Shown in pieces: positions 3,716 through 46,489 of a stretch of DNA of 64,000 bases. Numbering within the stretch: the first letter of the stretch is position 1; the number at the start of each line of letters is the position of its first letter. The notes beneath the pieces are model-generated. The model saw only the letters and a program-made list of their open reading frames with translations, did no database searches and was not told where the DNA came from. A program made the position numbers and the translations under genes. The stretch is from an uncultured Candidatus Saccharibacteria bacterium (GTDB taxonomy: Bacteria; Patescibacteriota; Minisyncoccia; Phycocordibacterales; UBA9973). The DNA lies in assembly GCA_964606285.1 (NCBI GenBank), contig CAZSFP010000001.1:133376-197375 (forward strand), read 5' to 3'.

Positions 3716-3726
3716 TCTTGATTTTT

Positions 3727-3760
3727 AAATCTGCGCCATGGCTGAGATTTAAAAATTCGT
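3727..3760. repeat. imperfect palindrome TTTTTAAATCTGCGCCATGGCTGAGATTTAAAAA (GCCATGG-core family, copy 1)
   Basis: seen directly; overlaps the stop of the Cas2-fold gene. Confidence 0.7.
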
Positions 3761-4132
3761 ATACGGTTTCGAAATTTTGAATGTTTTAAATTTGTCTCCT
3801 ATTTTTATTTCTTTCAGGTATTCTAAGAAATGTTTTGGAAGTGGTGATGGTCCAACCCAAACACTTTTTTGAATCATGACATATCCAAACTTTATCAAAT
3901 GTCGACGAAACCAATCGCGCTCCTTTTTCATCTCATGCGGGACGTCATACATGACAATAAGATTCTTTGGACTATCTTCTTTAAAAGGAGATGCGAACGC
4001 AGTACGATAGACGCCTTTCTTTTTAGAAGTACTTTTACTTGTTTCTTTTTTATAATCATCAAAAATTGGTATTCCAAATGCATTGACCCGTACCCCTTTA
4101 TAATAAAATGTTTTTCTCTTTGTTTGAGACAT
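3749..4132 (-). CDS. Cas2-fold / PaaX C-terminal-like domain protein with a Lys-rich N-terminal extension
   Basis: Segment LIVMYDVPHEMKKERDWFRRHLIKFGYVMIQKSVWV matches the Cas2 beta1-alpha-beta pattern (YDI...R...L...G.RvQ.SVF); start placed at the internal Met MSQTKRK; no CRISPR array nearby. Confidence 0.55.
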   Translation of the reverse strand: MSQTKRKTFYYKGVRVNAFGIPIFDDYKKETSKSTSKKKGVYRTAFASPFKEDSPKNLIVMYDVPHEMKKERDWFRRHLIKFGYVMIQKSVWVGPSPLPKHFLEYLKEIKIGDKFKTFKISKPYTNF

Positions 4133-4152
4133 AATAAATCTATTATATATAA

Positions 4153-4184
4153 TTTCTAAATGTGCGCCATGGCGCACATTTAGA
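4153..4184. repeat. 32-bp perfect palindrome TTCTAAATGTGCGCCATGGCGCACATTTAGAA (GCCATGG-core family, copy 2)
   Basis: seen directly; lies between the ogt-like gene end and the Cas2-fold gene start. Confidence 0.75.
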
Positions 4185-4205
4185 ATAAGTACTATTTATC
4201 GAATT

Positions 4206-9460: not shown

Positions 9461-10534
9461 TTACTTCACAATTCCCCCACCAAGACAAATTTCACCATCA
9501 TATATGACAACGGATTGTCCAGAAGAAATGAGTACAGGTTGTGAAAATGTAATATTGTCATTGGAGATAGTGCAATCAAAAAATTCTCCATGATAACGAA
9601 TTTGGGCTTGATACGATTTTGCAGGATCTGGAACTATTCGCTTATTCGCGCGAATAAGCGAATAGTTCGTCCGGGCTTTGGAAGATTCGTTTGGAGATAC
9701 ATGCGACACGGTAATCGTATTTTTTTCAATATCCTTTGCAATGACAAAATATCGAGGATCGTCACTTCCCTTTTTGGTAATCGTAAATCCGTGTCGTTCA
9801 CCAAGTGCAAAAAGAAATGCACCATCATGATGACCGATACTCTCGCCGGATTCATCAATAACATCTCCTGTCTTTGAAGAAATATAATGTTTGAGAAATG
9901 CCTTCATGTCGATTTCTCCGATAAAACACACACCCTGGCTATCCTTTTTTGTCGCAGTCGGCAAACGATATTTCTCTGCCAATTTCCGCACCTCTTTCTT
10001 TTCCAAATGACCTATAGGAAACAATATATGAGACAGATCATCTTGTGTTAGTGTCCAAAGAAAATAACTCTGATCCTTTGTGATATCCTTTCCCTTTTTT
10101 AATAAATATTTCCCAGAATCAATTTCATTTCTTGTATAATGCCCCGTGGCGATAAAATCTGCACCACGAGATTTTGCAAATTCCCAGAAAACACCGAATT
10201 TCACTTCTCGGTTGCACATAACATCCGGATTCGGTACGCGACCTGCACGATATTCGGCAATCATATAATCGGCAACACCCTTTTTATAAGCATCTTCAGC
10301 ATCACAATCAAGAAATGGGATTTGGAGATGGGCACAGACTCGCATTGCATCACGACGTTCATCACGCCATGTGCAGTCGATCCATTCAGGTGTCCAGGTG
10401 CGGATAAACACACCAACGACATCATATCCTTGATCTTTGAGGAGTGCCGCAGATACAGATGAATCAACACCACCTGAAACTCCGACAAACACTGTTTTTT
10501 TCTTTTGTTCCTGCGAAATCATATCCATAGTCAT
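9461..10534 (-). CDS. mnmA: tRNA-specific 2-thiouridylase MnmA
   Basis: PP-loop VGVSGGVDSSVSAALL; C-terminal VVIYDGEICLGGGIV typical of MnmA. Confidence 0.9.
   Translation of the reverse strand: MTMDMISQEQKKKTVFVGVSGGVDSSVSAALLKDQGYDVVGVFIRTWTPEWIDCTWRDERRDAMRVCAHLQIPFLDCDAEDAYKKGVADYMIAEYRAGRVPNPDVMCNREVKFGVFWEFAKSRGADFIATGHYTRNEIDSGKYLLKKGKDITKDQSYFLWTLTQDDLSHILFPIGHLEKKEVRKLAEKYRLPTATKKDSQGVCFIGEIDMKAFLKHYISSKTGDVIDESGESIGHHDGAFLFALGERHGFTITKKGSDDPRYFVIAKDIEKNTITVSHVSPNESSKARTNYSLIRANKRIVPDPAKSYQAQIRYHGEFFDCTISNDNITFSQPVLISSGQSVVIYDGEICLGGGIVK
9631..9668. repeat. 38-bp perfect palindrome GAACTATTCGCTTATTCGCGCGAATAAGCGAATAGTTC inside the mnmA coding sequence
   Basis: seen directly; shares the TATTCGCGCGAATA core with the 41516..41545 palindrome. 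Confidence 0.9.
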
Positions 10535-21394: not shown

Positions 21395-21537
21395 TTTGTA
21401 TTGCCTTATTATCTCACTTTCGCTACCTCATAAGGGCTTTTTTTGTTTTTAAATAACTATACCAATATCACCACACGTGATACTTCGTAGTCTTTACACA
21501 CAGTACTATTTTTTATTAAAAAGTCAAATATATAAAA

Positions 21538-21572
21538 TTCTATATCTACGCCATGGTGTAGATATAGAATTA
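21538..21572. repeat. palindrome AATTCTATATCTACGCCATGGTGTAGATATAGAATT (GCCATGG-core family, copy 3)
   Basis: seen directly, upstream of the 20681..21394 gene. Confidence 0.7.
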
Positions 21573-21582
21573 TAATAAAACA

Positions 21583-28382: not shown

Positions 28383-28481
28383 AAGAACAGTACAGAGTAC
28401 GAAGTACATAGTATTAAAAGAAAAAATCTCACCTAGGTGAGATTTTTTCTTTTAATTTTCTATGGTACACTGTTTTTTATG

Positions 28482-31307: not shown

Positions 31308-31379
31308 TGACCTCACGGAGAATCGAACTCCGATTAGCGGATTGAGAACCCGCTGTCCTAACCGTTAGACGATGAGGCC
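31308..31379 (-). tRNA. tRNA-Glu (anticodon CUC)
   Basis: Manual fold: acceptor GGCCUCA/UGAGGUC, D-arm GUCU-AACGGUUA-GGAC, anticodon arm GCGGG-UUCUCAA-UCCGC, T-arm CGGAG-UUCGAUU-CUCCG, discriminator A; CCA is not encoded. Confidence 0.85.
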
Positions 31380-39354: not shown

Positions 39355-39390
39355 ATAACATTCTCACATTCTTGAGAATGTTGGAATATT
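39355..39390. promoter_or_regulatory. ~38-bp palindromic operator-like element, copy A (AATAACATTCTCACATTCTTGAGAATGTTGGAATATT)
   Basis: One of three near-identical copies; centred on CATTCTTGAGAATG. Confidence 0.6.
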
Positions 39391-39670
39391 ACCATGAATG
39401 AATAAATTCACAGAACGATTTGCCGTATGGAGAAACGACATGTTTTACTGTTCGCCCGACATAATTTTTATTGAGTAATCCTGCCTGCACAAGACGTCGT
39501 GTATGTTCAGATAATGTCTTCATATTGCAGTTAAGTTGTTCTGAGAGATTTTCAAGTGTCACTCCTTGCTGTTTGTATACAAGTAACAATATAGAAATCC
39601 GCCAATGATTGGCGACACCTTTGAAATGTCGTTCGAATTGCTTTGCAATTTTTACCGTATCTTTTTTCAT
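39389..39670 (-). CDS. ArsR/SmtB-family winged-HTH transcriptional regulator
   Basis: HWRISILLLVYKQQGVTLENLSEQLNCNMKTLSEHTRRLVQAGLL HTH; start set at MKKDTVK so that the operator lies upstream. Confidence 0.7.
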   Translation of the reverse strand: MKKDTVKIAKQFERHFKGVANHWRISILLLVYKQQGVTLENLSEQLNCNMKTLSEHTRRLVQAGLLNKNYVGRTVKHVVSPYGKSFCEFIHSW

Positions 39671-39683
39671 ACTTCCAATATAC

Positions 39684-39717
39684 AACATTCCAATATTCTT
39701 GAGAATGTTGGAATGTT
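39684..39717. promoter_or_regulatory. palindromic operator-like element, copy B (CAACATTCCAATATTCTTGAGAATGTTGGAATGTT)
   Basis: Immediately upstream of the arsR-like start; near-perfect 30-bp dyad. Confidence 0.6.
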
Positions 39718-41016: not shown

Positions 41017-41445
41017 TTATCCTAGTAAAAACACAAACGACAAGAGAAGTCCCCACCAAGAAAGAAACGATGTGATGAAAGAAAACACGATTTTAGTTTG
41101 GAGATTTTGAGGAAGGAGCTCTGTCGGACGATTTTCACGTTCACGACGAATAAGTTCTGGACTCACGACAAATGAGAGAAAACATCCGTTCAGAATCATG
41201 ATTCCCATAACCACAAATTTCCAGAGAGCGATATGCATACCTGATGCAGCGAGAAGTATATGTCCTACTATGACAAGCAGCATTCCAATCCAGATAAGCG
41301 GTTTGGTAACCTTGTGTGTACGGATCGTTGCCTCGGTCCAGTATCCAGACTTGCGACCCAAAAATCCATGGAGATCAATAACGGTCACCGCCCCAAGTCC
41401 GATCACAAATCCTGCCATTGTTAAAAAAATTGAAAGTGTGTGCAT
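41017..41445 (-). CDS. hypothetical multi-pass membrane protein (142 aa)
   Basis: Four hydrophobic helices. Confidence 0.5.
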   Translation of the reverse strand: MHTLSIFLTMAGFVIGLGAVTVIDLHGFLGRKSGYWTEATIRTHKVTKPLIWIGMLLVIVGHILLAASGMHIALWKFVVMGIMILNGCFLSFVVSPELIRRERENRPTELLPQNLQTKIVFSFITSFLSWWGLLLSFVFLLG

Positions 41446-41515: not shown

Positions 41516-41545
41516 TATTTACCTATTCGCGCGAATAGGTAAATA
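41516..41545. repeat. 30-bp perfect palindrome TATTTACCTATTCGCGCGAATAGGTAAATA
   Basis: seen directly; shares the TATTCGCGCGAATA core with the mnmA-internal palindrome. Confidence 0.85.
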
Positions 41546-41556
41546 GACACACCATC

Positions 41557-41596
41557 ATAATAACATTCTCATATTCTCAAGAATGTTGGAATATTT
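41557..41596. promoter_or_regulatory. palindromic operator-like element, copy C (ATAATAACATTCTCATATTCTCAAGAATGTTGGAATATT)
   Basis: About 92% identical to copy A; upstream of the 41017..41445 gene. Confidence 0.6.
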
Positions 41597-41604
41597 TTGT
41601 GGAT

Positions 41605-42522
41605 CTAACGGTAGGAAAGTTCTTTTTCGACACCGGCGGCAAAAGATCCGACGTTCGGGAGGCGGTCCTGGAGGAAGTACAATCCTTCGTTGAGTAATGT
41701 CAGATCTTTCCAGTGAATGATATCTTCTTTTGTTTTAAATTGAGAGAGAATACTTTTGCGATACCCAGAAATGTATTCAGTCCGTTCACTTGGTGACATG
41801 GTTCCTATCGCACCGATACTGAATTGCATAAATGGATCTGTCCGCATCAACGACACGACGTCGTCATCAGAAATTTCAGGAAAATGACTCACGTCGATCG
41901 ATGCACCAAAATCCACGAACCGCACGTCGCCGTCCGGTGTGAGAATGACATGGGATTTGCCAAAATCATTGGTTAACAACTGGTCATTGACCAAGATATT
42001 TTTTTCATGCAGTGCCTTGAGTGCTTTTCCAAATTTCTGTCCCAAGTCTTCCATAAACGCTGGTGTACAGATATCGGCTTCGAGATTGAGGAGCGGCGTG
42101 CCATCGACAAACTGTTCGTGCATCATGCCTTCCGGCGCCTTGTACTGCTCCGGTCCGATCCCCATGTCCGCCGCCGTCTGTGCAATAGATTTTTCCGCAA
42201 TTGATTCGAGTGGCTTGATGATCCGACTCTCATGTTCAAAAGACGCCTTGATGCCCGAACCGCGAGTCGGTGCCGACAATTTCGTTATCAACGGTTTCCC
42301 TTCCGGCATATCTGGCGCCTGTCGAATTCTTGATTCTAAATGTAAATACGAAAGATATGCGGCATATTCTTTGGGATATGTCGCCTTCAATTCTTCTGTG
42401 CTCATCGCAAGTAATGCTTCACGAACCGATTCGGACTGGATTCTCCCCTTGAAAAAATGCTCCGATCGGCCGAGTTGAGCATCCAATTCCTCCGGTGTTT
42501 TCGATTTTCCAAATGATTCCAT
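41605..42522 (-). CDS. protein-kinase-like fold protein (atypical or possibly inactive), GC-rich
   Basis: LHEKNILVNDQLL catalytic-loop-like segment followed by VDFGAS (DFG); about 50% GC. Confidence 0.4.
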   Translation of the reverse strand: MESFGKSKTPEELDAQLGRSEHFFKGRIQSESVREALLAMSTEELKATYPKEYAAYLSYLHLESRIRQAPDMPEGKPLITKLSAPTRGSGIKASFEHESRIIKPLESIAEKSIAQTAADMGIGPEQYKAPEGMMHEQFVDGTPLLNLEADICTPAFMEDLGQKFGKALKALHEKNILVNDQLLTNDFGKSHVILTPDGDVRFVDFGASIDVSHFPEISDDDVVSLMRTDPFMQFSIGAIGTMSPSERTEYISGYRKSILSQFKTKEDIIHWKDLTLLNEGLYFLQDRLPNVGSFAAGVEKELSYR

Positions 42523-42968: not shown

Positions 42969-43070
42969 ATTATTTATCTAAATACTTTTAATTATTCCAA
43001 AGTTTAGTGATTGTTTCTTTGATTTTTTGATCGTGTTCACAAGCACAGTTATTGCTAATCCGCTTGCGAA

Positions 43071-44123
43071 TCATGGAGATAGTCTCATTGACGTTAATCC
43101 ACCATTCTTACAGTTATCACATAATCCATTATCAGCAAAGACGGATGTTGGGCTATATACATAAGCTCTCAGACAATTCCTACAAGATCTTGCTGAAATT
43201 GATATAGGATTTACAGTTTGAAATGATTCGGACAATCTAATATCTGTATTCATGATCGAATTCCTTAAATCTGTAGTTTTTAGTACTGCAGGAGAATTAT
43301 TAAGGATAATGGGGTTCGCAGATTGTAATGAAACCAATGCGTTCTCATAATCTACACTGAAAACCCCTGAGGATTGATTCCTCTTCTCTTCAAATTGCTC
43401 AATGGTTTGTTTTTTGTATCCAGCAGAGAAATTCTTATTTAACATTTTCAGTGGATCGAAGTAATAACTAACATCTTTGAATAAAGTCTGAATACTAGTT
43501 GCTAGAATTAAATCATCTCGATTTTTAATCTTTGGATTTTCGGTAAAATCAAAAATATTACCGGTACTAAAAAATAATTCATAATCTTTTTTGTTTTCCA
43601 AGTATTTAACGACCGAAGCAATAATCAAACAGTCTGGCTGTATGTTTTCGTAATTTTTTTTCTCACCCGTAGATTTCTTATAAGGCTTACTTCCTTTTAG
43701 GAACATACAGTAGGCCTGAGTTAAAGCTTCAGGAGTTAGCCTTAAATCATCTCGGATAGTATTAGGGTGTTCAAAAATACTTCTAACATCTTTTTTAATT
43801 TTTTGAATCTCTTTTAAGGTAGTTTCCTTGCCTTGCTGAATTGATTTGGTTAAATTATCTTTAGCTTTTTTGCTTCCGATTGTATTGCTCTTTTGAATAA
43901 TTGTAACCAAATCATTCGCTTCATTATTTATCAACTCAATCTTTTCATTAAACTTTCTTTCAAATTCAAGTTCTATTATTTCCGGTAAAAGAAGTTTAAA
44001 TTTGTTTGCATTTAACAACTTGTTAATTTTTTCTAAAACATCATCACTATTAAATTCAAGATCTAAAAAACATAGGTGTATATAAATATTTGAGTCTATT
44101 AAAACAAATTTTTCTTTTTTCAT
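43071..44123 (-). CDS. PIN-like nuclease domain protein with C-terminal CxxC-x17-CxxC zinc ribbon
   Basis: N-terminal FVLIDSNIYIHL (first PIN acidic residue) and later DCLIIASV; C-terminal CRNC...CDNC. Confidence 0.55.
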   Translation of the reverse strand: MKKEKFVLIDSNIYIHLCFLDLEFNSDDVLEKINKLLNANKFKLLLPEIIELEFERKFNEKIELINNEANDLVTIIQKSNTIGSKKAKDNLTKSIQQGKETTLKEIQKIKKDVRSIFEHPNTIRDDLRLTPEALTQAYCMFLKGSKPYKKSTGEKKNYENIQPDCLIIASVVKYLENKKDYELFFSTGNIFDFTENPKIKNRDDLILATSIQTLFKDVSYYFDPLKMLNKNFSAGYKKQTIEQFEEKRNQSSGVFSVDYENALVSLQSANPIILNNSPAVLKTTDLRNSIMNTDIRLSESFQTVNPISISARSCRNCLRAYVYSPTSVFADNGLCDNCKNGGLTSMRLSP

Positions 44124-44130
44124 ATATTAA

Positions 44131-46149
44131 TTATAGATCTTCTAAAACTCTTACTACGACTGCTTGGACGATCATTTCTTCATTCTCAGTAAACTTCATG
44201 GGCTGGTGTTTTGGATTTGTGGAGCAAGGCTTTAATACAACAACCCCATTTTCTCTATAATACTCTTTTATTGTAGCATCCTCGCCAATAAGTGCGACAA
44301 CTCTATTCCCTATTTCTGGATGATAATTTTTACGGCACAAGACGAGGTCTCCATCATTTATCCCTGCTTTATTCATGGAATCTCCAGTAGTACGAAGTAC
44401 AAAATATTTTGAACCTTTAGAAATATATTCTACTGGAACATCTATCATTTCCTGAACGGTAGAGTCCGCAAACATCAATTCCCCGCAACCAGCCGAATCA
44501 AAAAGCGGAAGCTTTACCATCTGGCCAGCATATGGAGACTTTATTATTTTTGAAGTAATTTCTTTTTTAATGGATGTAACTTCTTTATTTATTATTTCAT
44601 TAAAATAATCTCTCAAACCTTGATCAACGATATAAATATAAGTTCCTTTTATACCGCGAGTTAACAATGTTTTATAAATATTTATTACATATCTTTCAAG
44701 TTCATTTGGGTCAGTAATGCCATTTCTACCATTTATATCAAAATATTTCTCACGATCAACTTTAAATTTTTTATTTACAGGGTCATATGAAAACTCAGGT
44801 CCAATAATAACCCCAACATAGTTCAAATCATAACCTTGAACTGTATGTATACAACCAACTTCATTTATAGCATTGGGTGAATTAACCCAGTCTTGAGCAA
44901 CGGAATTCCAGACCAATTTCAAGTCACCTATTTCAATATCATAATCACGAGTTCCCTTTGCGGTGTGCCATGGCCACGCATAACCAGCAACAACGCGGGC
45001 CAATTTATGCTTTTTGTCTTTTTCTTTAATTTCACTAACCATTTGCTCTGCATTATCGAATATTTTAAAATCATAATTTGAGAAACTTGTATTTTGGGGT
45101 ATTTTTAAATCAAAAATGTCTTCAATAAATTTAATGTACTCTTCGCCTGCTTCAACACGCATCTGAGAATTCAATTCATATTTTTTAGCATTTAATTTTC
45201 TAAAATCTTCAGGACGAATATCAGCTGGTTTTATACTTTGATTTTCATCATAAAAGAAAATTTGGTTTTTTGACGACTTCATAATCCAATCAAGTTGTGT
45301 GCCATTATTATCCAAACCAAGTCCCCGACTTACATTATCAAAAGCTCCATAACCCATAATACCTTTTCGTCTTTGTAGTCTATGTGATTCATCAACAATC
45401 AATAAGTCATATTTATCTTTTACAACATCATTTGGACCAATAACCATATTTGATTTTAATCCTTTTATTTTAGAAAAAACTCTAGCAATTGTTTTTCTAA
45501 GTGAGGCCATTGGTACAACAAGACCAATATTCATATTTTTTGTTTCTTCCTGTTCTTTGAGGTATTTAAAAAGATATGTAGCTAAAATTGTTTTACCTGT
45601 ACCCGGTTTACCATTTACAATAAAAGTATTGTATTCATTCTTTTTTATATCCTTAAAAATCTGTCTAGCGACAGTAAACTGATCTTCTGTTAGAGACTTG
45701 TATGGTGAGTATTTAAATAAATCACTATTTTTTAAATCCTCGAGAGTATTTTTTACTAAACCCATCTGTCGTAAATTTTCCCAAGCTATTTCAAACTTTG
45801 CTTTGTACTTTACCTTGTCGTAATAATTATGATTCTTTAAACCCCCATTACTATTCTGTAAAATAAACTTTTCGTCAGCAGAAATATACTGAATTAACCA
45901 AGACTCGATATCAAAAGCGGCAGAAATGTTAAATTCTTCATCAGTAATAATATGAATTTCTTTTAACTTCGCTCTTTCCGGATTTTCATAATGTTGCTTA
46001 CTTCGAAAATAAGCGTTCACTGTTTGACCAATATAAACTTCCTTCTTGTCTTCTAAAATGTAAACAACAGGCCAATTTTTACCAAATTTAAAATTCTTAA
46101 TTTGATCAAAATCCTCTCTATTAAATGGAAAAGTTTTTATTTCAGACAT
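44131..46149 (-). CDS. three-domain fusion: GIY-YIG nuclease + DUF2075-like SF1 helicase-type P-loop NTPase + LexA/UmuD-like S24 peptidase
   Basis: GIY-YIG: VVYILEDKKEVYIGQTVNAYFRSKQH...E. NTPase: Walker A GKPGTGKT, DExH-like LLIVDESHRL, IHTVQGYDLNYVGVII. S24: candidate Ala-Gly cleavage site (DSAG/CG) about 35 aa upstream of TGDSMNKAGINDGDLVL...TIKEY (Ser/Lys dyad). Confidence 0.7.
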   Translation of the reverse strand: MSEIKTFPFNREDFDQIKNFKFGKNWPVVYILEDKKEVYIGQTVNAYFRSKQHYENPERAKLKEIHIITDEEFNISAAFDIESWLIQYISADEKFILQNSNGGLKNHNYYDKVKYKAKFEIAWENLRQMGLVKNTLEDLKNSDLFKYSPYKSLTEDQFTVARQIFKDIKKNEYNTFIVNGKPGTGKTILATYLFKYLKEQEETKNMNIGLVVPMASLRKTIARVFSKIKGLKSNMVIGPNDVVKDKYDLLIVDESHRLQRRKGIMGYGAFDNVSRGLGLDNNGTQLDWIMKSSKNQIFFYDENQSIKPADIRPEDFRKLNAKKYELNSQMRVEAGEEYIKFIEDIFDLKIPQNTSFSNYDFKIFDNAEQMVSEIKEKDKKHKLARVVAGYAWPWHTAKGTRDYDIEIGDLKLVWNSVAQDWVNSPNAINEVGCIHTVQGYDLNYVGVIIGPEFSYDPVNKKFKVDREKYFDINGRNGITDPNELERYVINIYKTLLTRGIKGTYIYIVDQGLRDYFNEIINKEVTSIKKEITSKIIKSPYAGQMVKLPLFDSAGCGELMFADSTVQEMIDVPVEYISKGSKYFVLRTTGDSMNKAGINDGDLVLCRKNYHPEIGNRVVALIGEDATIKEYYRENGVVVLKPCSTNPKHQPMKFTENEEMIVQAVVVRVLEDL

Positions 46150-46150
46150 T

Positions 46151-46489
46151 TTATAATTCAGTATACTTACTATGTTTATTTTTAGATTTTTTTACAGGAT
46201 ATTTTTTATTATTCTCTTTCATCTTTAAAATAAAAGCTTTTTCAAGATCAACATTTAAATCATTAGACATTAACAAAACCCAGTACAAAACATCAGCAAG
46301 TTCTTTTGCTATTTCTTTTTTATTTTTCTTTACATGAAGTTCCATTTCCTCCAGATTTTTCCATTGAAAATGTTCTAATACTTCTGAGGATTCTAAACAT
46401 AGAGAAATAGCAAGATCTTTTGGATTATGAAATTGCTTCCAATTACGAGCATTTCTAAATTTAACAATTTGTTCTGTAAGCTTTTTCAT
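46151..46489 (-). CDS. DCTPP1/MazG-like all-alpha NTP pyrophosphohydrolase
   Basis: RNWKQFHNPKDLAISLCLESSEVLEHFQWK and ELADVLYWVLLMSNDLNVDLEKA...KYP match the dCTP pyrophosphatase 1 / YpjD motifs; its stop is separated by 1 nt from the next start. Confidence 0.75.
   Translation of the reverse strand: MKKLTEQIVKFRNARNWKQFHNPKDLAISLCLESSEVLEHFQWKNLEEMELHVKKNKKEIAKELADVLYWVLLMSNDLNVDLEKAFILKMKENNKKYPVKKSKNKHSKYTEL

Follow-up and report, generated by a model that had tools for sequence, protein, structure and literature searches.

Why does a protein-coding gene carry a long perfect palindrome? This question is raised by a 64,000-nucleotide stretch of DNA from an uncultured Candidatus Saccharibacteria bacterium (contig CAZSFP010000001.1, positions 133,376 to 197,375; hereafter the window), in which mnmA, the gene for tRNA 2-thiouridine synthase, contains a perfect palindrome of 38 base pairs (bp). 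We found that the mnmA palindrome is a complete idealised copy of a four-box site with the core ATTCGCGCGAAT that recurs across Patescibacteria (the candidate phyla radiation, CPR). The four-box site brackets a gene for an ArsR/SmtB-type protein of ~86 amino acids (aa), with one copy at the promoter and a second over the stop codon. It is most likely the operator of this regulator, as predicted from sequence comparison. We consider it rather probable that the palindrome represents such a predicted operator embedded in the coding DNA of mnmA, made symmetric by template switching, conversion or selection.

Two palindromes with a shared core

The shared architecture of these sites is ATTC-N4-ATTC-N4-GAAT-N4-GAAT, four boxes on an 8-bp register that span 28 bp, and it serves below as the template. 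Four features of the window carry the comparison.

9461..10534, minus strand: mnmA, tRNA 2-thiouridine synthase; the palindrome forms codons N290-V301, at the start of the C-terminal domain
9631..9668: 38-bp perfect palindrome; an idealised four-box site plus 5 further complementary bases per side
9636..9663: four-box core ATTC-GCTT-ATTC-GCGC-GAAT-AAGC-GAAT, which fits the template without a mismatch
41516..41545: perfect palindrome of 30 bp around the same core, ATTCGCGCGAAT; outer boxes ATTT/AAAT, 2 mismatches to the template (41517-41544)

The open reading frame (ORF) at 9461..10534 is identified as MnmA by the NCBIfam equivalog NF001138 (372 bits vs a cutoff of 284) and by matching Pfam domains. 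Going by the names of its homologues, the organism belongs to the Paceibacteria/Parcubacteria of the CPR. An earlier note on this DNA had reported a 38-bp perfect palindrome inside this gene, and we recovered it at 9631-9668 as a perfect 19+19 dyad, GAACTATTCGCTTATTCGC followed by GCGAATAAGCGAATAGTTC. It encodes NYSLIRANKRIV, and the dyad centre falls on a codon boundary. The same note had linked it through a shared core to a second perfect palindrome. This link is borne out: 41516-41545 is a perfect 15+15 dyad of 30 bp, TATTTACCTATTCGC followed by GCGAATAGGTAAATA, located between the two minus-strand ORFs 41605..42522 and 41017..41445, and the 14-mer core TATTCGCGCGAATA is present in both palindromes. 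These are its only 2 matches in the window, even with up to two mismatches allowed, and 0.24 would be expected. Across 100 shuffles that preserved dinucleotides, the longest perfect palindrome measured 16 bp in most cases and 24 bp at most; the window itself has four outliers, of 44, 38, 32 and 30 bp. Chance is therefore as unlikely as the note had judged. Its description of the genome as AT-rich stands in part, since a G+C content of ~40% makes the window only moderately, not strongly, AT-rich.

The mnmA palindrome is flanked by 308 open codons upstream and 57 downstream and is thus not intergenic. We detected no convincing promoter-like element adjoining it. A terminator-like hairpin of mnmA itself lies at 9452-9433, and a promoter-like site of the next gene, MgtC, at 9380-9353; ~285 bp separate the palindrome from the MgtC start downstream. 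As mnmA has its own terminator-like hairpin and MgtC its own promoter-like site, the palindrome is neither of these. A role as an operator of the downstream MgtC is ruled out by the hairpin, the promoter-like site and the distance, and a role as an intrinsic terminator by the lack of a T-run and the position within an ORF.

Proteins identical to those of this organism were found in other sequencing runs as short contigs (L273-L278, of which L276, L277 and L278 are Logan SRR16481187, SRR21677132 and SRR32910811; loci outside the window are cited by such numbers throughout). The three contigs that carry MgtC start ~90-112 bp before it, close to the terminator hairpin of mnmA, and do not extend to the palindrome.

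The four-box site and its predicted regulator

We scanned a collection with one genome per species for the pattern YTATTCGCGCGAATAR, and at least 118 stretches matched. Patescibacteria lineages are named in 49 of the 80 record titles listed. Among the matches listed, nearly all copies of the core are intergenic and close to gene starts or ends, several contigs have 2-4 copies, and ~55 of 129 copies form perfect palindromes, each arm being 13-23 nucleotides (nt) long. Many of these perfect copies span 26-46 bp, and the 19-nt arm, as in mnmA, is the commonest among the longer copies (at least 13 nt). Complementarity is ~97% to position 15 from the centre, falls to 0.74-0.52 at positions 16-19 and reaches background from position 21. 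The core copies listed have no excess of G-T pairs in their palindromes. Intergenic copies of CTATTCGCTTATTCGCGCGAATAAGCGAATAG in L083, L139 and L148 equal the mnmA palindrome over 32 bp, and the copy in L205 is identical to it over 28 bp. In the literature searched for the core and for CPR palindromic or ArsR motifs, we found no description of the site or of the regulator in CPR.

Three other origins were considered for these copies and set aside. A phage origin is ruled out by the absence of the four-box GCGC site from 2.9 million viral contigs; the core 14-mer had 66 single matches in viral contigs, which we read as background. In L191 (900-5800), four copies stand between small genes of one strand, which are toxin-antitoxin-like or otherwise cassette-like, and a CCGCCGGCAC(C/T)TCA stretch is conserved after three of the four copies. 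Integron attC-like sites, which this array brought to mind, were rejected because the flanks are without conserved AAC/GTT boxes. The LexA box of Patescibacteria was dropped as a candidate because no SOS genes were seen adjoining the sites.

Small genes adjoining several copies are homologous to each other. A tblastn search found the ~86-aa regulator gene in 18 of the 118 loci listed; in these 18 loci, the site usually lies 20-50 bp before the regulator start, often with a second copy just after the end of the gene. Family matches place the ~86-aa protein among the ArsR/SmtB-family winged-helix proteins, with 34-40 bits to Pfam HTH_5 (cutoff 22) and 65.8 bits to NCBIfam NF033788 (cutoff 55). 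The L148-type protein, at 34 and 65.8 bits to these two models, exceeds both curated cutoffs. The nearest solved structures are HlyU, CzrA, NolR and CadC. An example CPR ArsR-like sequence contains no cysteine, so the usual metal-sensing sites may be absent.

The association was also examined from the side of the gene. With six close sequences as the query, 80 metagenome loci were picked by protein alone, and sites with at most 2 mismatches to the template were counted. A four-box site occurs within 150 bp downstream of the gene in 54 of 74 loci and within 150 bp upstream in 46 of 77, the latter having the layout of autoregulation, a site over the regulator's own promoter. These gene-anchored loci hold 126 sites in 237 kilobases (kb), vs ~0.6 expected from the window rate (0.17 per 64 kb). 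The centre is GCGC in 82 of the 126 sites, with GCAC/GTGC, GCTC/GAGC and GTAC as variants. For upstream sites, the commonest distance from centre to ATG is 43-46 bp, with a TATAAT-like hexamer after the centre. Of 57 downstream sites, 26 have their centre exactly 8 bp beyond the last codon, a spacing that results from the left boxes being encoded by the final codons (...CTT CTC TAA TTC). In L193-L272, the C-terminus and stop codon of the regulator overlap with one copy of the site that it presumably binds.

The boxes are nearly invariant in the gene-anchored sites, and the outer spacers are fully complementary in just 18 of 95 unique ones. Conservation of the boxes without conservation of pairing favours recognition of double-stranded boxes over a hairpin. 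The suggestion in the earlier note that the palindromes could be binding sites for a dimeric DNA-binding protein thus gains support and a putative partner: a CPR-wide four-box dyad that brackets genes of the ArsR/SmtB type. The predicted operator would probably be bound by two dimers, one per box pair.

Neighbours of the sites include a class-V aminotransferase (cysteine-desulfurase-like), a heavy-metal P-type ATPase, MsrB and Rrf2 (L209, L210, L246, L171, L162, L172), and also a treble-clef zinc protein. MnmA needs persulfide sulfur, and together with these neighbours this makes a sulfur or metal theme conceivable. They hint at metal, sulfur or redox themes but are too varied to define a regulon.

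A second type of four-box site occurs in the window beside a paralogue of the regulator.

39389..39688, minus strand: gene for a small winged-helix regulator of ArsR/MarR-like type (93 aa), probably starting at ATG 39670, with a site on either side
39687..39714: four-box site of the second type immediately before the winged-helix gene, with a TATATT hexamer between it and the ATG
39360..39387: four-box site of the second type that immediately follows the stop codon of the winged-helix gene and lies 24 bp ahead of the VF530 gene
41565..41592: second-type four-box site with the centre TCAA; its centre is 48 bp from that of the 41516 palindrome
41017..41445, minus strand: gene for a 142-aa membrane-like protein with no family assigned; downstream of the composite site pair

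The window has five matches to the four-box template vs 0.17 expected, and three of them (39360-39387, 39687-39714 and 41565-41592) have a TTGA/TCAA centre. A profile built from 18 CPR ArsR-like proteins matched one window ORF, 39389..39688 (E 7.7e-9). Its protein scores 27.3 bits to Pfam MarR (cutoff 24.6), 18.9 bits to HTH_5 and 33 bits to NF033788, the last under the cutoff of 55. The TTGA-type pair brackets this gene in the same way as the GCGC-type pair brackets the ~86-aa regulator, and the site at 39687-39714 is placed at the regulator's own promoter. Homologues of the protein are encoded in L185, L187 and L240, and the L240 gene is directly followed by a TTGA-type site. In L257, a TTGA-type and a GCGC-type site lie 47 bp apart upstream of a gene for the ~86-aa regulator; the window pair at 41517-41592 has the same order, 48 bp apart.

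Other palindromes of the window belong to different groups. The longest perfect one (44 bp), at 28413-28456 between ftsZ and a thioredoxin-reductase-like gene, consists of an A-run, a G+C stem and a T-run and resembles a two-way terminator; similar hairpins, AAAAAATCCCC...GGGGATTTTTT, occur at many gene ends of the window. A second palindrome family has the centre CGCCATGG(C/T)G (3721-3756, 4154-4185 and 21533-21574), and its member at 4154-4185 is a perfect 32-mer. Two members of this family bracket a PaaX_M/Cas2-like regulator gene at 3749..4177 (minus strand), again a regulator between palindromes. Further along, 43000-46200 is low in G+C (~31%), has large minus-strand ORFs of 350 and 672 residues, and may be foreign or defence-related DNA. 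One tRNA gene, at 31308-31379 on the minus strand, is the window's only Rfam match at gathering score.

Origin of the mnmA copy

How did the gene come to hold the site? The two arms, read in the sense of the mRNA, have different histories.

9650..9668, minus strand: 5' arm (NYSLIR), essentially ancestral; 16-17 of 18 nt match L003 and L004
9631..9649, minus strand: 3' arm (ANKRIV), which holds all lineage-specific changes; 11-13 of 18 nt match L003 and L004

The earlier note had raised the possibility that a mobile copy inserted in-frame into mnmA, and had advised an alignment of orthologues to see whether the 12-aa segment is an insertion. It is not one. In an alignment of 25 MnmA sequences, the 12 palindrome codons have same-length counterparts and there is no length change against the 24 orthologues. 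The counterpart segments read NYSLIRTNMRII, NYSLIRTNMRTA and TYSLVHVNMRTD, and distant members have x-F-T-L-I-N-T-N-W-I. DNA identity to orthologues is 73-78% gene-wide and 22-29 of 36 nt in the palindrome segment, which is thus as similar to orthologue DNA as the rest of the gene. The alignment, together with orthologous DNA in both arms, rules out an in-frame insertion: the mnmA palindrome is written in orthologous codons.

We compared the DNA of seven mnmA orthologues codon by codon. At the orthologous codons, 6-11 of the 19 pairs are mismatched. In L004 and L005, mnmA has a perfect 14-bp centre, TATTCGTACGAATA, and the innermost GTAC of these two genes is also a variant centre among the gene-anchored sites. 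The mnmA genes of L004, L005 and L007 match the four-box template with 1-2 mismatches. The ancestral codons (YSLIRTNMRI) were already a quasi-palindrome that resembled the four-box site.

The lineage-specific changes are ACR>GCG (T>A), ATG>AAG (M>K), ATY>ATA and ATT>GTT (I>V), and the window has CGA in the 3' arm where its nearest relatives have CGC. All of them are in the 3' arm and each creates a complementary pair. The 3' arm now pairs with the 5' arm at every position, and the price was three replaced residues (T>A, M>K and I>V). Of the 120 best MnmA homologues, no other reads LIRANK. Neutral drift is unlikely to have made five differences complementary while sparing 13 positions that were already paired. 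The pattern has the signature of a template switch, namely a repeat that is imperfect in relatives and derived changes that are confined to one arm and all restore pairing.

Three routes could have led to this state. A single fold-back template switch, primed by the central hairpin, could have rewritten the 3' arm with the 5' arm as template; conversion of a short tract by another copy could have had the same result; or selection for binding could have acted stepwise. With the nearest relative only 80% identical, these routes, and whether there was a single event or not, are inseparable. Copies elsewhere with arbitrary yet exactly complementary outer arms suggest a symmetrising process at the level of DNA. 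Under the operator reading, the simplest effect of the mnmA site, if occupied, would be a transcription roadblock within mnmA; equally, it could be a tolerated or neutral extra site.

Copies in two unrelated genes of other CPR lineages do lie in insertions. In L143 (7741-7770), a PF26298/PF26299 protein has 11 extra residues, INYSLIRANKR, where its homologues have none, and the palindrome lies inside them; a sister protein has an insertion of the same length and a different sequence. In L093 (2000-2025), 14 residues, SNPSLIRANKGIDG, are inserted in a variable loop of a DUF763 protein, again with the palindrome inside. The LIRANK reading frame is used in all three intragenic copies. The insertions in L143 and L093 imply that members of the family can arrive as units. 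Of the earlier proposal of a palindromic mobile element, the part that concerned mnmA thus fails, and the general idea keeps some ground in these two lineage-specific in-frame insertions. Some mobility of the palindrome family is conceivable.

Competing explanations and known systems

Several observations weigh against an operator in mnmA. In many perfect copies, the outer arms are arbitrary yet exactly complementary, with no G-T excess, which a pure protein-recognition model does not predict. The regulator with an LSFKSTSKHL-type recognition helix, which goes with GCGC-type sites, is not encoded in the 64-kb window, where we found just the paralogue at 39389..39688 with its TTGA-centred flanking sites. 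By a loose test, 8 of 131 sites lie in long open frames; all of these intragenic cases but the one in mnmA look like overlaps with regulator gene ends or spurious frames; given this rarity, the mnmA copy may be without function. The genes adjoining the sites are heterogeneous. The in-frame insertions in L143 and L093 would be unexpected if binding sites evolved in situ.

The main rival is a small selfish or mobile palindromic element of ~30-42 bp that spreads in CPR and can land in-frame. The mnmA stretch would then have been replaced or converted by a copy, and the regulator gene with its two copies would be a master unit and not a case of simple autoregulation. Such an element would explain the palindromes held in the 11-residue and 14-residue insertions of L143 and L093, the identical 32-bp copies in different genomes, the flanking of the regulator gene by two copies, and the L191 array in which copies separate toxin-antitoxin-like cassettes. 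We regard it as possible, though doubtful. In mnmA the length is unchanged and both arms are orthologous to the DNA of relatives, and 64 kb contain just 2 GCGC-type copies. We found no target-site duplication (the 2-mers on the two flanks agree in 3 of 53 copies, vs 3.3 expected), and no transposase was seen among the genes adjoining the copies. The lack of the four-box GCGC site in viral contigs is a further point, as are the positions of the copies, which are fixed relative to the regulator's promoter and stop codon, as for regulatory sites. A tentative variant, which we hold to be rather unlikely, merges the two ideas: copy-and-paste CPR elements of 30-42 bp would carry an ArsR-type binding site, turn symmetric by fold-back copying and enter genes in-frame, with the bracketed regulator as their source and mnmA as a converted look-alike.

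The palindrome could instead be what a single fold-back template switch left behind when replication corrected a quasi-palindrome, without function and with only a secondary likeness to other palindromes. The one-armed changes that each restore complementarity fit this well, the 14-bp perfect centre in relatives could prime a fold-back, and Watson-Crick symmetry without G-T pairs is the rule in the family. Symmetry is all that it accounts for: the 28-32 bp identity to sites in other genomes and the match to all 16 specified template bases lie outside its reach. Since the product is a conserved site, the 5' arm must already have been a double half-site. As a full explanation it is improbable; as a route of origin it is compatible with the embedded-operator reading. 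Still more improbable is an RNA hairpin, formed in the mRNA of mnmA and in transcripts of intergenic copies, that would signal processing, stability or termination. The mRNA strand of the palindrome does fold strongly (-26.4 kcal/mol, z = -6.4; -18.1 kcal/mol as DNA), and many of the intergenic copies closely follow the end of a gene, some of them between convergent genes. Against this, no T-run follows the palindrome, mnmA ends in its own terminator-like hairpin, the gene-anchored sites keep boxes and not pairing, and G-U pairs are not enriched. A known RNA family is ruled out, as Rfam 15 returned only microRNA models, with 16-22 bits vs cutoffs of 70-144. That the two palindromes are unrelated accidents of codon choice is hardly credible. 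The encoded peptide is indeed close to that of relatives; the shuffles, the expectation for the shared 14-mer, the identity to sites in other genomes and the uniqueness of LIRANK among MnmA homologues all speak against it.

To our knowledge, gene regulation is almost unexplored in CPR/Patescibacteria, which do not grow in pure culture. The putative regulator and site form a pair that is conserved across many CPR lineages and has a simple signature with which any genome can be scanned. The mnmA copy is a clean natural case of a protein-coding segment and a DNA site on the same bases, where the protein paid for a perfect site with three amino-acid changes. Whether such sites can move is a question posed by the in-frame insertions in the two other genes, and the interest would be higher if the family is mobile.

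The closest known kind for this putative operator is the autoregulatory operator of ArsR/SmtB repressors (SmtB, CzrA, CadC, NolR, HlyU). The two are alike in the small winged-helix homodimer family, to which the CPR protein belongs by Pfam, NCBIfam and PDB sequence matches, and in an AT-rich dyad-symmetric site over the regulator's own promoter. Classical ArsR/SmtB sites are 12-2-12 inverted repeats, whereas the CPR site has four ATTC/GAAT boxes on an 8-bp register over 28 bp. Also unlike the classical operators, a second CPR copy is fixed over the regulator's stop codon, and the protein is very small (~86 aa). Operators inside coding sequence have been experimentally established, namely lac O2 within lacZ and the PurR site within purB. 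They resemble the mnmA site in being embedded in an ORF without an adjacent promoter; in mnmA, occupancy and effect are inferred.

For the origin of the copies, two further systems offer parallels. Rickettsia palindromic elements (RPE), REP/RAYT and Correia elements are likewise palindromic repeats, and the CPR copies in L143 and L093 similarly lie in-frame in genes. RPE are the closest precedent for palindromes in-frame in genes, and the pairing of REP with RAYT resembles the layout of a gene flanked by two copies. Unlike all of these, the CPR elements are much shorter (30-42 bp), with two GCGC-type copies in 64 kb, no transposase or target duplication was found beside them, and the mnmA copy is not inserted. 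The template switch at quasi-palindromes (Ripley model), studied in E. coli, is a proposed one-step maker of perfect hairpins. It matches mnmA in that an imperfect repeat of relatives is perfect here through one-armed changes; it differs in being a mechanism of origin only, silent on why the product is a conserved site.

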